Source: a virus (lineage: Duplodnaviria; Heunggongvirae; Uroviricota; Caudoviricetes). Taken from it: a stretch of DNA of 19,417 bases. Numbering within the stretch: the first letter of the stretch is position 1; every line of letters begins with the position of its first letter. The notes beneath the pieces were generated by a model, which worked only from the letters and a program-made list of their open reading frames with translations, was not told the DNA's origin and did not search any database. Where the stretch lies: the IMG/VR virus record IMGVR_UViG_2690316241_000020; one strand, 5' to 3'. The position numbers were made by a program, and so were the translations under genes. Below, piece after piece: positions 10,391 through 13,059 of this stretch.

Positions 10391-10747
10391 ATGGAAATAA
10401 AACCAGAGGATGAGTTAAGCAATATCGTTTTATTTCCGGTAAAAGAGGATGACCCTCGTAATCAGGTTAATTTTCTTTATGAGCCATCGGAAAGACCATA
10501 TTGTCATCACGCCTCTGTCCGGGTTGACGAAAAAGAGCGTCAGGTCCGCTGTAAAATCTGCGGTGCAGTTGTGGAGCCATTTGACTGGATGCTCTCTGTG
10601 GCGAAAAGAGAAACCAGGCTGGCAGATGATGTAAAGCTATTGCGCCAGGAGGAACAGGAAAGGCGGAAAAATATAGAAAAGTTAATTCAGATTGAGCGTA
10701 ACGCGAAAGCGCGGATACGCAGGGTGACAAAATCCAGAACTGAATAA
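10391..10747 (+). CDS. Hypothetical protein (118 aa) with Cys/His cluster
   Basis: ATG at 10391 with strong GGAGAGGAG Shine-Dalgarno; the track's 10334 start is a GTG with no ribosome-binding site. Motif CHH...CKICG suggests a zinc-binding element. Confidence 0.55.
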   Translation: MEIKPEDELSNIVLFPVKEDDPRNQVNFLYEPSERPYCHHASVRVDEKERQVRCKICGAVVEPFDWMLSVAKRETRLADDVKLLRQEEQERRKNIEKLIQIERNAKARIRRVTKSRTE

Positions 10748-11535: not shown

Positions 11536-12438
11536 ATGACCACTATTACCAAAGAACGTATTGAATTGTTCATTAAAAATCCGCTTGAAAACGGGCTTAC
11601 CCGTGGTGAACAAATGGAACTGGCACGGATTGCGCTGGCATCGCTGGAAGCAGATCCAGTTAAACGAGTTAACTCAGATCAGATGCGCCGAGTCTGCTTA
11701 GAAGCTAATCGCCATTTAGATAAATATGACGCGATGGCGAAAGAGGTAAATAAGTTGCTTGGACGCATCGCCCCGCCAGCGCCGGTAGTGCCGGAAGAAG
11801 CAACTCCGGAAAACGTAGAAATGCTCTCTGGCTATGTTTCCACGTACAAATTAACCGATAGCGAGCGCGATATTGCTGCCGAAATATGGAACGCCTGCCG
11901 CACCGCCATGCTTCAGTCCGGAAACTTTCGGGAAAGCAAGAATTCGTCAACCAATAATTTTCGGGAAATCCCGGAAGCGTCAACCAGCTCTCCGGTAACT
12001 CCGGCTCTTCTGCCTGGTGGTTTCACCATTGAGGAGGCGAAGGAATTACATGAAGACCTGGTACGCAGCCACATAAGCAAGGCCTTAAGTGGCGAAAAGA
12101 TGAAAAAGAAAGATCGCGATGCTGATTTGCGCTGGATTCATGGCGTTATAGTTCAGGCAGCGTGGTTTGTAAAAGCATCACTGGAGCAGAATGCACTATC
12201 GGGCAACTATCCGGTAACTCCGGATAGTTGGATAAGCTGTAGTGAGCGAATGCCGGATACCAAAACAGCCGTTCTTGTTGCCAGGGAGTTTGACAGGAAA
12301 GGTGACTGGCGAATGAAATGGGCTACTTACATCCCGGGGCATCCTGACGCTAATGATGGGTGGATAATTCCTGGTGCGTCGTGGAAACCGTCACACTGGA
12401 TGCCGCTACCAGAACCGCCGCAGGAGGTGCGCCAATGA
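11536..12438 (+). CDS. Hypothetical phage protein with C-terminal DUF551-like W/H-rich motif
   Basis: 300-aa ORF, ATG at 11536 with AAGGAG Shine-Dalgarno. C-terminus ...GWIIPGASWKPSHWMPLPEPP resembles the DUF551 signature common in enterobacterial prophages (recalled). Confidence 0.6.
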   Translation: MTTITKERIELFIKNPLENGLTRGEQMELARIALASLEADPVKRVNSDQMRRVCLEANRHLDKYDAMAKEVNKLLGRIAPPAPVVPEEATPENVEMLSGYVSTYKLTDSERDIAAEIWNACRTAMLQSGNFRESKNSSTNNFREIPEASTSSPVTPALLPGGFTIEEAKELHEDLVRSHISKALSGEKMKKKDRDADLRWIHGVIVQAAWFVKASLEQNALSGNYPVTPDSWISCSERMPDTKTAVLVAREFDRKGDWRMKWATYIPGHPDANDGWIIPGASWKPSHWMPLPEPPQEVRQ

Positions 12439-12518
12439 TCTGGCCTGAAGCCTTTGCAATTACAGGCGTTGCTATAGCTATTGATTTTTTAGTATATGTT
12501 ATTTGTCGGTGGGGGTAA
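12435..12518 (+). CDS. Candidate 27-aa hydrophobic micro-protein
   Basis: ATG at 12435 overlapping the upstream stop (ATGA) with AGGAGG six nt upstream. Encodes MIWPEAFAITGVAIAIDFLVYVICRWG, one predicted TM helix. Below the ORF-track cutoff. Confidence 0.4.
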   Translation: MIWPEAFAITGVAIAIDFLVYVICRWG

Positions 12519-12553
12519 AAACGTTCGCCGGGATTCACACCAAAGGAGGGAAT

Positions 12554-12658
12554 ATGTCGGATGATATTTCACTGGCAATGGAAGGTGCGCTGGCTGTTAT
12601 TGCTGTTGTGGGCGTTTACTGCCTGGTTGTGTTTTTGATGGATCGACTAGGGAACTGA
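12554..12658 (+). CDS. Candidate 34-aa hydrophobic micro-protein
   Basis: ATG at 12554 with AAGGAGGG Shine-Dalgarno. Encodes MSDDISLAMEGALAVIAVVGVYCLVVFLMDRLGN, one predicted TM helix. A 22-bp perfect palindrome follows at 12667-12688. Confidence 0.4.
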   Translation: MSDDISLAMEGALAVIAVVGVYCLVVFLMDRLGN

Positions 12659-12903
12659 ATTCATTACGATATGGGAATTCCCATATCGGGTAAAAACGGT
12701 TTGCGGTAAAGCGAGAGTTAAGTAGAATTGCTGCGGGTGCTTGAGGCTATCTGCCTCGGGCATGCCACCGTAAGGCAGACAGAGAAAAGCCCCAGTTAAC
12801 ATTACGCGTCCGGCAAGACGCTTAACATTAATCTGAGGCCATATCTATGCTCTACACACGTAGGTTAGCCTCTTACGTGCCGAAAGGCAAGGAGAAGCAG
12901 GCT

Positions 12904-13059
12904 ATGAAGCAGCAAAAGGCGATGTTAATCGCCCTGATCGTCATCTGTTTAACCGTCATAGTGACGGCACTGGTAACGAGGAAAGACCTCTGCGAGGTAC
13001 GAATCCGAACCGGTCAGACGGAGGTCGCTGTCTTCACAGCTTACGAACCTGAGGAGTAA
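12904..13059 (+). CDS. hok: Hok-family type I toxin (HokD/RelF- or HokC/Gef-like)
   Basis: 51 aa MKQQKAMLIALIVICLTVIVTALVTRKDLCEVRIRTGQTEVAVFTAYEPEE, matching the Hok/Gef family as I recall it. ATG at 12904 with AAGGAGAAG Shine-Dalgarno. The track ORF from 12847 is an in-frame upstream extension. Confidence 0.85.
   Translation: MKQQKAMLIALIVICLTVIVTALVTRKDLCEVRIRTGQTEVAVFTAYEPEE

Follow-up and report, generated by a model that had tools for sequence, protein, structure and literature searches.

The window, meaning the whole stretch of 19,417 nucleotides analysed here, is the nin-like region of an O157-type E. coli lambdoid prophage, with genes in the order CI repressor, replication genes, DUF977, DUF551, ORF1, ORF2, hok/sok, DUF968, RusA and Q. 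This assignment draws on Pfam matches of the neighbouring genes, an Rfam match to sok and the PGAP annotation of the identical stretch in EDL933. The initial annotation had drawn attention to two hydrophobic micro-ORFs, a perfect palindrome and a repeated motif immediately upstream of hok, and a direct reading of the sequence and of its list of ORFs finds all of these features where it had placed them. Together with their neighbours they are:

11536..12438, + strand: DUF551 (EaA-like) gene, 300 aa (Pfam DUF551, E=1.3e-20); its TGA stop overlaps the ORF1 start as ATGA
12422..12428, + strand: ORF1 Shine-Dalgarno (SD) AGGAGGT, within the 3' end of the DUF551 gene, seven nt before the ATG
12435..12518, + strand: ORF1, predicted single-pass membrane peptide gene of 27 codons (MIWPEAFAITGVAIAIDFLVYVICRWG); ATG at 12435, TAA at 12516-12518
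12513..12525, + strand: motif copy 1, GGGTAAAAACGTT, made up of the ORF1 Gly27 codon, the TAA stop and an A-run; left edge of the indel that holds ORF2 and the palindrome
12543..12549, + strand: ORF2 SD AAGGAGG, four nt before the ATG
12554..12658, + strand: ORF2, predicted single-pass membrane peptide gene of 34 codons (MSDDISLAMEGALAVIAVVGVYCLVVFLMDRLGN); ATG at 12554, TGA at 12656-12658; PGAP WP_001278450.1
12667..12688, no strand: intergenic palindrome CGATATGGGAATTCCCATATCG, perfect over 22 bp, with 11-nt arms and zero spacer
12688..12701, + strand: motif copy 2, GGGTAAAAACGGTT, an A-tract just upstream of the probable hok -35; right edge of the indel
12701..12728, + strand: probable hok promoter, with -35 TTGCGG (12701-12706), a 16-bp spacer and -10 TAGAAT (12723-12728)
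12735..12909, + strand: hok mRNA leader with antisense sok region (Rfam RF01794, 112.6 bits, E=2.5e-25)
12904..13059, + strand: hok toxin gene, 51 aa, with a mok-like in-frame upstream start at 12847

The EDL933 homologue of the DUF551 gene is shorter and is named DUF551 domain-containing protein by PGAP. The hok promoter is placed from its location ahead of position 12735, where the Rfam sok/hok-leader match begins, and from its conservation in all compared hok cassettes; it scores under the threshold of our consensus promoter scan. In phage 933W the homologue of the leader stretch is annotated as sokW/mokW/hokW. The hok ORF itself matches the NCBIfam Hok-family models with E=5.7e-13, yet its 48.5 bits fall below the curated cut-off of 73 bits; PGAP names it hokD. 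Because the same promoter scan returned no + strand promoter-like site from 12000 to 12822, and hence none before either micro-ORF, ORF1 and ORF2 are probably carried on the rightward early (pR-type) transcript.

The two micro-ORFs and their conservation

ORF1 was recovered by tblastn in 92 phage records, mostly directly after DUF551/EaA genes, and its 27-codon frame is intact across 17 nucleotide variants, with the conserved residues M-x-W-P-E-A-F ... I-C-R-W-G. Its best 19-residue Kyte-Doolittle window (residues 6-24) scores 2.31, which fits one transmembrane helix. Its pN/pS is 0.26-0.41 in the proposed frame, where pS amounts to 0.55-0.77, and 0.75-1.55 when the other frames are read (Fisher p=4e-6 to 3e-3). 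The preceding stop overlaps the ORF1 start as ATGA whether the gene in front is DUF551, 933W L0139 or the unrelated one found in the related loci L055/L024/L053, and SD-like purine runs also precede ORF1 behind two other upstream genes (933W L0139; L055/L024). Through this overlap and SD, translation of ORF1 would be coupled to whichever gene precedes it. A fusion of DUF551 and ORF1, hinted at by a cluster mixing 121-aa DUF551 proteins with an ORF1 variant, proved to be a clustering artefact, ORF1 being absent from the DUF551 sequences. Nonsense variants also occur, namely W3* in POCJ13 and L041, and W26* in the L047 type. ORF1 is unannotated in RefSeq and appears as "hypothetical protein" in a few GenBank records; it is thus routinely missed in RefSeq though recurrent in many Stx-converting and other E. 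coli phages.

The SD of ORF2 is placed in the 35-nt spacer after the ORF1 stop, and ORF2 would be translated from this strong signal of its own. The sequence AAAGGAGGGAAT(A/G)TG at its start is kept in L121 and L374, while the rest of the spacer has diverged. The best hydropathy window (2.72, residues 11-29; same measure) again fits one transmembrane helix. PGAP annotates ORF2 in EDL933 and uses the 34-codon, SD-backed start. At least 80% of a 321-bp stretch is carried by 671 of 5426 complete E. coli genomes, and a protein homology search, run with an in-frame 51-aa extension as query, places the family in E. coli and close Enterobacteriaceae only. Among close ORF2 variants, five of the six polymorphisms are synonymous or an ATG-to-GTG start change. 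Homologues of 44-50% identity adjoin hok on its upstream side in phages Tritos and HannyBb, and tblastn gives the same match in Evi and mEp460; in 32 hok contexts the Tritos-type ORF2 is cut to six codons. Against L121, L213 and Tritos, pN/pS is 0.26-0.46 (Fisher p=0.007-0.025); between Tritos and HannyBb, a pair of low divergence with 7 differences, the in-frame value is 0.85. Out-of-frame pN/pS for the micro-ORFs is mostly 0.6-1.5, and the synonymous excess is frame-specific in nearly all pairs.

ORF2 together with an upstream in-frame extension corresponds to XECs145 of O157:H7 Sakai, a 54-codon model that was reported as transcribed and ribosome-covered and as a hypothetical protein in the annotation of another EHEC strain (Hucker et al., 2017, PLoS One, PMC5597208). 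RIBOseq in LB gave XECs145 an RCV of 4.35 and a coverage of 0.99 (PMC5597208 S2 Table), values that belong to a multi-copy locus and to the longer ORF model, the footprint counts of which take in the 3' end of ORF1. A prediction table of that paper lists XECs145 as 'inner membrane'; the study gives it no function and, in what it says of XECs145, does not mention hok, the palindrome or ORF1. ORF1, at 27 aa, lies under the 30-aa cut-off of the study. Literature searches on the two peptide sequences returned nothing else that was relevant.

Most likely, then, both micro-ORFs are genuine genes, each for a predicted single-pass membrane peptide. Both frames are kept in diverged phages, both show in-frame purifying selection and ribosome-binding sites, and ORF2 falls within an ORF with published ribosome footprints. 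As the frames are conserved in related prophages, the objection that the initial annotation had contemplated, a lack of conservation, falls away. Its near-consensus SDs are likewise both present; the four nt between SD and ATG of ORF2 are at the short end of the usual range. Their hydropathy predicts that both peptides would insert in the membrane, and their size, hydrophobicity and gene context suggest accessory micro-proteins of the phage, which might for instance modulate a membrane protein of the host or of the phage itself. The nonsense variants of ORF1 and the truncated Tritos-type ORF2 indicate that both genes are dispensable. They are nevertheless two well-supported additions to the poorly charted phage membrane micro-proteins. 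A separate idea, that ORF2 arose by degeneration of a Hok or by duplication of the hok leader, was rejected, since neither inspection by eye nor the family models reveal any similarity.

Two other accounts of the micro-ORFs call for weighing. The initial annotation saw in them an architecture typical of type I toxins, and one or both could encode such a toxin, or a holin-like depolarising peptide, with an antisense RNA from internal minus-strand promoters holding translation down. Both peptides are indeed small and hydrophobic with one predicted transmembrane segment, a bona fide type I system (hok/sok) adjoins them, and minus-strand promoter-like sites run 12578->12551 and 12519->12491, the region having 3 sites against 1.2+-0.9 expected. 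However, the minus-strand hexamers fall on coding and SD sequence that is conserved for other reasons, and both minus-strand sites are weak. Moreover, neither ORF has a + strand promoter-like site of its own, the ORF1 start overlaps the upstream stop, and ORF2 exposes a consensus SD. Rfam gives no match over 12430-12660 at the gathering score or at E<=5, and so no antisense RNA family. The peptides match neither Hok, Ldr, Ibs, TisB nor any other family: Pfam, PHROGs and NCBIfam offer no credible assignment for either, and the NCBIfam Hok models recognise the hok ORF and neither micro-ORF. Nor does the heavy translation of the multi-copy XECs145 locus in growing cultures (RCV 4.35, on the longer model) resemble that of a silenced toxin. 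We therefore regard the toxin interpretation as improbable. Equally improbable, and disfavoured, is that the micro-ORFs are non-functional, their conservation being hitch-hiking with neighbouring functional DNA and the footprints pervasive translation. The ORFs are certainly very short, take nonsense or truncated forms in some phages, belong to no family, lack a known function and are taxonomically narrow; yet amino acids, length and start and stop positions are kept while pS (0.55-0.77) nears saturation, in nearly all pairs only the proposed frame has the synonymous excess, and the SD and start context persist whichever of three unrelated genes lies upstream.

The repeated motif and the ORF2 indel

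The motif GGGTAAAAACG occurs at 12513-12523 and 12688-12698; at least two matches to it arise in 14 of 200 shuffles, making its recurrence only marginally beyond chance. It had been described as following each ORF. Two copies do exist, but copy 1 contains the stop of ORF1 itself (GGG TAA), and copy 2 has the final G of the palindrome as its first base, 30 nt past the ORF2 stop, and runs into the probable hok -35. The proposal of a shared downstream signal does not hold up: the copies are separately explained, and the diverged homologue in L121 has no repeat, copy 1 being replaced there by TGGTTATAAACATCTGG. Variants of copy 2 accompany the hok cassette in 933W, PPompW, L055 and L121, and it might act as a promoter UP-like element.

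The two copies bracket a segment of ~175 bp, comprising ORF2 and the palindrome, that is present in some phages and absent from others. The junctions in 933W and L383 consist of the left flank of copy 1 and the right flank of copy 2, that is, one fused copy, and in the 933W type the ORF1 tail is joined straight to the hok promoter. Among 145 hok-promoter contexts, 44 have ORF1, ORF2 and the palindrome, and 28 have ORF1 joined directly. As judged from these junctions, the motif appears to mark a mosaic joint rather than a regulatory repeat, and it offers an example of short A-rich homologies at gene ends serving as lambdoid mosaic joints.

The palindrome and its counterparts in KilA-N genes

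The palindrome starts 8 nt past the ORF2 stop and ends 12 nt before the probable hok -35. Its perfection over 22 bp, as first described, is confirmed and non-random: it is the only match in the window within 3 mismatches, none of 200 shuffles gave a match, and the window holds no other palindrome of at least 10 of 11 pairs. As RNA it would fold into a 9-bp stem with an AAUU loop (-12.9 kcal/mol, z = -4.3). It is followed by GGTAAAAACGG (TAATGAATTC on the other strand), with no U-tract, and is absent from the terminator-scan list, so the hairpin is not an intrinsic terminator. Rfam has no family for the palindrome or its region, in the window or in five related loci, and literature searches with the palindrome sequence, or for KilA-N with palindrome or hairpin, returned nothing relevant. 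Other candidate identities did not hold up: the known operator consensus sequences of CRP, FNR, NarL 7-2-7, DeoR, IclR, CsoR/RcnR and lambda CII do not appear to fit; and a stop-codon read-through or SECIS-like hairpin after the ORF2 UGA was rejected because L121 has a TAA and the palindrome in another frame.

The exact 22-mer has 63 occurrences in species-representative genomes, mostly inside KilA-N genes, which from their motif we take to be the Pfam PF04383 family; the KilA-N-embedded palindromes form a family as defined in this analysis. There the palindrome sits at a constant position, about 50 nt upstream of the QGTWVHP codons, and in enterobacterial phage KilA-N genes such as that for the 268-aa protein of L053 it encodes D-M-G-I-P-I-S. 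The window 22-mer is identical to the commonest enterobacterial variant, with its GGAATTCC apex and CG ends. Across KilA-N genes this apex is conserved while the lower stem covaries, compensatory changes keeping the pairing, and the palindrome nucleotides are read in two different frames. The Gly codon at the centre AATT is GGA in about 60% of cases, against 6% at a control Gly codon of the same genes. The conserved apex and covarying lower stem are more in keeping with one strand folding back on itself than with a duplex operator. In KilA-N genes A.C mismatches are roughly as frequent as G.T ones, and so favour neither strand, and neither RNA nor DNA, as the acting form. The hairpin is spread across many phyla, from Cyanobacteria to Bacteroidota to Proteobacteria, and is undescribed in the literature and RNA families searched.

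In the window, however, the palindrome is intergenic and no KilA-N homology was found in its flanks on either side, which identifies it as a free-standing copy rather than a family member in situ. A resemblance of its + frame YDMGIPISGKNGLR to DMGIPISGKNGL of a Calothrix KilA-N gene, with ~10 of 15 flanking bases in agreement, might have marked a coding relic; as no other flank homology accompanies it, we dismissed it as coincidence. Free-standing copies recur elsewhere. The exact 22-bp unit, CG ends included, is kept in at least 7 unrelated flanks; upstream of hok it stands behind four different left flanks, in other phages it lies 7-60 nt after stop codons, in L027 and L187 it separates cro-like and cII-like genes, and in L247 and about 40 loci it precedes a true terminator by 8-10 nt. 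This palindrome-plus-terminator cassette is found in 9 E. coli genomes by word-11 blastn and in none by megablast. Although their spacer sequences differ, the window, L213 and the diverged L121 all have the hairpin beginning 7-8 nt past the ORF2 stop. Single uncompensated mutations are also seen, CGATCTGGGAATTTCCATATCG in L374-377 and CCGTATGGG... in 8 loci, besides several further mutated variants in terminator context; such decay argues for weak or no pairing constraint outside KilA-N genes. In a hok-anchored scan, the exact palindrome is absent from about two thirds of the hok loci among the matches listed, and many of the cassettes that lack it are otherwise near-identical.

Possible roles of the palindrome and comparison with known systems

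We regard the palindrome as a discrete module of 22 bp that copies, outside any KilA-N gene, the commonest enterobacterial form of the KilA-N hairpin, and at this locus it would most likely act on the transcript. Folding 7-8 nt past the ORF2 stop, such a stem-loop may form a 3'-end or processing barrier on the transcript, would perhaps slow terminating ribosomes, and could separate the early-operon message from the autonomous hok/sok cassette. A further possibility, though a doubtful one, is that it is a working copy of an undescribed but widespread element, the KilA-N hairpin in which the GGAAUUCC apex is conserved and the lower stem covaries. This element would be recognised by some protein, possibly the KilA-N domain, and phages would have redeployed it as an intergenic cis-regulatory or processing site, in this case between an early-operon micro-gene and the hok promoter.

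It is rather unlikely that the palindrome instead works as duplex DNA, an operator bound by a dimeric protein such as one of the KilA-N/antirepressor type from its own or a co-resident prophage, and regulates the hok promoter or blocks read-through into it. A perfect, zero-spacer palindrome centred about 57 bp before the presumptive hok start would suit such a site, the exact 22 bp with CG ends in so many unrelated flanks is what sequence-specific recognition predicts, the AATT centre is also selected in KilA-N genes by the codon bias given above, and contig L007 has both a hairpin-bearing KilA-N gene and a hok-type copy. On the other hand, the L055 type shows an 18-bp difference in the spacing to the -35, many hok cassettes do without the palindrome, the arms in KilA-N genes are free to change provided that pairing is kept, with the centre conserved, opposite to what a typical operator shows, and the EDL933 prophage with this locus has neither a second copy nor a palindrome-bearing KilA-N gene within 49 kb. 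A possible, though doubtful, alternative makes the palindrome a functionless passenger, a KilA-N hairpin relic or recombination scar at a mosaic joint, hairpins attracting break-and-join events. This would accommodate the KilA-N/antirepressor-type genes that fill the same ORF1-hok slot in related phages (L053/L058, L055/L024), the breakdown of homology between hok contexts at or beside the palindrome, the uncompensated mutations of free-standing copies, and hok cassettes that work without it in 933W-type and Tritos-type phages. Set against it, no free-standing context has flanking KilA-N homology, so that two independent precise breaks would be needed each time, and the same 22-bp limits recur, always shortly past a stop codon.

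On balance, then, we consider it probable that the micro-ORFs are genuine genes, the motif a mosaic joint and the palindrome a free-standing copy of the KilA-N hairpin that likely acts on the transcript. The initial annotation is thus borne out for the micro-ORF genes but not for a type I toxin or a shared motif signal, and its palindrome is real and belongs to a far wider family. The palindrome is more important than it had implied, having led to a compensatorily evolving palindrome inside the KilA-N coding domain in many phyla; it is unusual for a constraint on nucleic acid to be so strong that it dictates amino acids in a DNA-binding domain of wide occurrence. A function for the hairpin, if found, would account for the conserved protein motif D-x-G-I-P-x-S/T as well as for the stray copies at the borders of phage modules.

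Among previously described elements, XECs145 (PMC5597208) has the same sequence as ORF2 and differs in its 54-codon model versus the 34-codon, SD-backed start. The hok/sok system is the immediate downstream neighbour, with ORF1 or ORF2-like ORFs abutting the hok promoter in different phages, and Hok and the two peptides are alike in being small, with one transmembrane segment and a conserved Cys. In contrast to the components of hok/sok, the micro-ORFs are not part of the hok mRNA, being located before its promoter, and have no mok-like overlap, sok-like antisense RNA or similarity to Hok models. KilA-N genes such as that of L053 contain the identical 22-mer, whereas the window copy is non-coding and its flanks are without KilA-N homology. 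The intrinsic terminators and nut/boxB hairpins of lambdoid early operons have a similar nin-region location; however, the palindrome lacks a U-tract, has no recognised boxA-like partner, is a single copy in the window and bears no evident resemblance to the known boxB loops.

The REP/BIME extragenic palindromes of enterobacteria are 3'-UTR stem-loops that protect the upstream mRNA, and REPs within about 15 nt of a stop codon have been reported to lower expression via ribosome stalling. The window element differs from them in being 22 bp long, perfect and phage-borne, with homologues inside coding sequence; by eye it does not resemble the REP consensus, and a single copy of the 22-mer is present in the window, as in 49 kb of EDL933. 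What it shares with REP/BIME elements is its form and setting, a stable palindrome in transcribed intergenic DNA, a few nt past a stop codon, that recurs at many unrelated loci.

The locus upstream of hok

The window corresponds to the part of a lambdoid prophage that runs from immunity to Q, with genes for an S24/HTH repressor, DUF977, DUF551, DUF968, RusA, the antiterminator Q and a SASA esterase (Pfam). The four features that the initial annotation singled out upstream of hok (two micro-ORFs, a palindrome and a repeated motif) all stand, in the sequence and the ORF list, where it had placed them:

12435-12518, + strand: ORF1, 27 codons
12513 and 12688: copies 1 and 2 of the motif, the 11-mer GGGTAAAAACG
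12554-12658, + strand: ORF2, 34 codons
12667-12688: perfect palindrome CGATATGGGAATTCCCATATCG, 22 bp
12701-12728, + strand: hok promoter (TTGCGG, 16 bp, TAGAAT), inferred from where the Rfam match begins
12735-12909, + strand: hok-leader/sok RNA, Rfam match of 112.6 bits

The 321 bp around the ORFs and palindrome are matched with 100% identity by loci in EDL933 and in numerous further genomes (O157, O145 and relatives). Of 5426 complete E. coli genomes, 671 contain at least 80% of this stretch, frequently in several of their prophages. The inferred hok promoter is kept in every hok cassette compared and is too weak to be detected in the consensus promoter scan. Elsewhere in the window, these RNAs lie above the Rfam gathering score, the two sRNAs being back to back downstream of Q:

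4403-4454, - strand: DicF RNA, early-left region, 75.8 bits
16532-16722, + strand: STnc100 sRNA, 146 bits
16723-16784, - strand: AgvB (anti-GcvB) sRNA, 96.5 bits

The palindrome, confirmed as perfect, is the sole window match to its sequence within three mismatches, and has no match in 200 shuffles; no other palindrome in the window reaches 10 of 11 pairs. An 18-bp palindrome, likewise perfect and zero-spacer (GGCAGGGGATCCCCTGCC, 1476-1493), lies inside an 823-aa minus-strand ORF (1288-3759); the corresponding EDL933 gene carries an exonuclease annotation.

Two occurrences of GGGTAAAAACG also arise in 14 of 200 shuffles, so the repeat is weak on its own. It is indeed present twice, but it is not conserved as a repeat, copy 1 not being kept in the related locus L121, and the copies have separate explanations: copy 1 (...TGG GGG TAA AAACG) is the Trp-Gly-stop of ORF1 followed by an A-run, and copy 2 is the A-tract that abuts the hok -35 on its upstream side, where it may serve as an UP-element. 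In 933W and loci of the L383 type, ORF1 (ending ...TGG AGA TAA or ...TGG GGA TAA) continues directly into AAACGGTTTGCGG and the hok promoter, with one fused motif copy and neither ORF2 nor palindrome. The motif copies therefore flank a ~175-bp segment that is present or absent, and short homology at a mosaic joint is the preferred reading of the motif.

Arrangements upstream of hok in 145 hok-promoter contexts; these include loci first retrieved via the palindrome, and the proportions are rough. ORF2b is the Tritos-type ORF2 homologue.
ORF1-ORF2-palindrome: 44
ORF2b remnant, without palindrome: 32
ORF1 joined directly to the hok promoter: 28
Palindrome without ORF1 or ORF2 (mostly PPompW-like): 18
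Intact ORF2b, without palindrome: 14
ORF2-palindrome, ORF1 motif not detected: 9

The palindrome inside KilA-N genes

Species-representative genomes contain the exact 22-mer in 63 stretches, with a chance expectation estimated at ~0.03 (596 Gb versus 4^22 22-mers); the matches belong to Cyanobacteria, Bacteroidota, Proteobacteria, Firmicutes, Spirochaetes and Chloroflexi. Most matches lie within ORFs of the KilA-N type, a widespread family of DNA-binding-domain genes (PF04383, assigned by motif), where they code D-M-G-I-P-I-S; six genomes of Bacteroidota (Saprospiraceae, Lewinellaceae, Haliscomenobacter, Aureispira) have the 22-mer in another frame, R-Y-G-N-S-H-I. Of 78 contexts recovered by a degenerate scan for any coding of D-M-G-I-P-I-S(TCN), 62 had both arms intact (neutral expectation ~1 in 24), an overestimate, since the tally pooled loci from the earlier exact-palindrome scan. 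An unbiased test is provided by scanning for the downstream KilA-N motif QGTWVHP, which gave 74 gene contexts never retrieved by palindrome search. Within 120 nt upstream, 48 of them contain a zero-spacer palindrome with 9 or more of its 11 pairs formed, and 18 of these are perfect 22-mers; within 120 nt downstream, just 1 of 74 reaches 9 pairs. The palindrome centers cluster 50 nt upstream of the Q codon.

At least 20 different palindromes, with both arms changed, occur in KilA-N genes (e.g., CGATATCGGAATTCCGATATCG, CGATGTCGGAATTCCGACATCG, CGAAACGGGAATTCCCGTTTCG, CGATGCGGGAATTCCCGCATCG and CGTTGTGCAAATTTGCACAACG). When the genes are aligned by codon under protein guidance, 76% of the cells for the nine outer pairs are Watson-Crick, as against 15-31% when the partner is slid by 1-3 columns; pairs 5-8 each show two to four pair types, one of these varying pairs being formed by the synonymous third base of the Pro codon, and the GTWxHP codons of the palindrome-bearing genes are synonymously saturated. 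The palindrome in these genes is a constraint on the nucleic acid and not on the protein. Rfam has no family for it, literature searches returned no description of its sequence or its presence in KilA-N genes, and as far as we could find this deeply conserved, covarying hairpin is undescribed. It was the window palindrome that led to it, and, judged from sequence, the latter is a putative redeployed copy of the KilA-N hairpin.

Free-standing copies and their possible roles

The exact 18-mer core of the palindrome has 122 occurrences in IMG/VR, 75 of them upstream of hok, where four different sequences adjoin the palindrome on its left:

DUF551-ORF1-ORF2
the diverged ORF1'-ORF2' of L121
a Paa/AdfO gene with just the last few ORF2 bases (PPompW phages)
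an antirepressor-like gene, with the distance from palindrome to -35 longer by 18 bp

In the window and the loci L213 and L121 the hairpin starts 7-8 nt past the ORF2 stop despite a differing spacer. Decayed hok-type palindromes with uncompensated changes also occur, and about two thirds of the visible rows of a hok-anchored scan are loci without the exact palindrome. One 10.7-kb IMG/VR contig (L007) carries both a KilA-N hairpin at 4796 (center AATC) and a hok-type copy at 10625 (AATT), 5.8 kb apart, and would be a convenient natural system for probing a possible trans-acting link.

Other non-coding copies of the enterobacterial variant lie 7-60 nt past stop codons. A portable 3'-end cassette, CTACCATACAAG-palindrome-GACAGCCAGGGCCTCTTCGGAGGCCTTTTT, in which GACAGCCAGGGCCTCTTCGGAGGCCTTTTT is the true intrinsic terminator, is found in the nin regions of E. 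coli ABWA45 (L247 4001-4064, after a DUF551 gene and a small ORF) and ~40 IMG/VR loci, behind at least three different upstream sequences; in a flank-anchored sample, many copies of its palindrome have single uncompensated mutations. The cassette is also present in L043, behind an EaA-like gene. Further copies follow a primase-like gene (L019), precede a terminator among seemingly late genes (L075), or, as the 22-mer, stand between cro-like and cII-like genes (L027 ~7066-7087; L187, Siccibacter colletis), the interval that in lambda is the site of nutR and tR1.

The reading that we consider rather probable, taken jointly, is that ORF1 and ORF2 would encode accessory micro-proteins that span the membrane once and are made from the rightward early transcript, the motif would be a recombination joint, and the palindrome a portable hairpin module, most likely acting on the transcript just past the ORF2 stop as a 3'-end or processing barrier that may also slow termination. 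It would keep the early message apart from the autonomous hok/sok cassette. That the palindrome is instead a duplex operator appears unlikely: in KilA-N genes the apex GGAATTCC is conserved and the lower stem covaries, which favors a folded single strand, while A.C and G.T mismatches are equally frequent and favor neither strand nor molecule (RNA or DNA). It is doubtful, too, that it is a functionless relic of the KilA-N hairpin stranded at a mosaic joint; the strongest point in its favor is that free-standing copies decay; against it, their 22-bp limits are precise, they are devoid of any KilA-N flank, and their placement after stop codons is constant.

The micro-ORFs and the type I toxin reading

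The ATG of ORF1 and the TGA that ends the 300-aa ORF before it form an ATGA overlap, with AGGAGGT seven nt upstream of the ATG; ORF2 has AAGGAGG four nt upstream. In both peptides a 19-residue window is well over the usual hydropathy threshold for a transmembrane helix, consistent with the single-pass hydrophobic peptides initially proposed. ORF1 is found in 92 phage records (tblastn), mostly directly behind a DUF551/EaA gene, including Stx phages, BP-4795, VT1-Sakai and some large virulent or P1-like phages; it is preceded by L0139 in 933W and by an unrelated gene in L055, L024 and L053, the ATGA overlap and a purine-rich SD being retained behind both. Its 27-codon frame is held in 17 nucleotide variants, with conserved ends (M-x-W-P-E-A-F ... 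I-C-R-W-G) and a variable, hydrophobic core. Diverged pairs (pS 0.55-0.77, pN 0.20-0.27) have pN/pS of 0.26-0.41 in frame versus 0.75-1.55 in the other two frames (Fisher p 4e-6 to 3e-3). Nonsense variants exist, namely an amber at codon 3 (TGG to TAG) in Shigella phage POCJ13 (L003 1514-1600) and L041, and W26* in four loci of the L047 type; hence ORF1 is dispensable, and these natural knock-outs or truncations are usable in a search for phenotypes. PGAP leaves ORF1 unannotated in the identical stretch of EDL933; it is conserved, mostly unannotated, and of the same ordinary kind as ORF2.

ORF2 is already known, being annotated in EDL933 (PGAP) as hypothetical protein WP_001278450.1, with its translation reported in a published listing. 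A search of 5.8 billion proteins recovered only close relatives from E. coli and Enterobacteriaceae; close variants differ mostly synonymously, GTG replaces the ATG start in five loci, and the diverged L121/L374 lineage retains ORF1, ORF2 and the SD with a diverged spacer. ORFs of 44-50% identity occur in phages Tritos, Evi, mEp460 and HannyBb (tblastn, E ~0.1), and in the two inspected, Tritos and HannyBb, the ORF is directly upstream of the hok promoter with its own SD and a GTG start. The pN/pS of ORF2 is 0.26-0.46 in more diverged pairs (p=0.007-0.025) and 0.85 in the low-divergence pair Tritos-HannyBb. In 32 hok contexts (L379 and 31 others like it) only the final six codons (MDHLSD*) of the Tritos-type ORF2 remain; hok is thus not in need of ORF2, and the left boundary of the mobile hok module lies inside a former ORF2-like gene. 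A terminator-like site (12609-12625, + strand; a 6-bp stem, then GTTGTGTTTT) within ORF2 codons 19-28 is probably an incidental product of Val/Phe/Leu-rich coding sequence.

Ribosome profiling, named as a check in the initial annotation, is partly available for ORF2 as footprints over XECs145 (Sakai 1550761-1550922), which is ORF2 plus an in-frame upstream extension; these data involve multi-copy mapping and an ORF model longer than ORF2. For LB, the listed RPKM values are 79.1 (transcriptome) and 346.1 (translatome), together with a coverage of 0.99 and a ribosome coverage value of 4.35; translation is almost nil under cold and osmotic stress (Hucker et al., 2017; PMC5597208).

The type I toxin architecture initially suggested is unlikely and finds no support in our searches: a consensus scan detected no plus-strand promoter-like site upstream of ORF1 or ORF2, Rfam no RNA family over them on either strand, and neither peptide matched a protein family. 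Two minus-strand pairs of sigma-70-like hexamers (12578->12551 and 12519->12491), each matching at 9 of 12 positions, face left over the start of ORF2 and the 3' end of ORF1 and, if active, would yield antisense transcripts; since both lie on coding and SD sequence, they carry little weight. Type I toxin mRNAs show the opposite of the translational coupling and exposed consensus SDs of ORF1 and ORF2, and likewise the opposite of the heavy ribosome coverage listed for XECs145 in growing cells.
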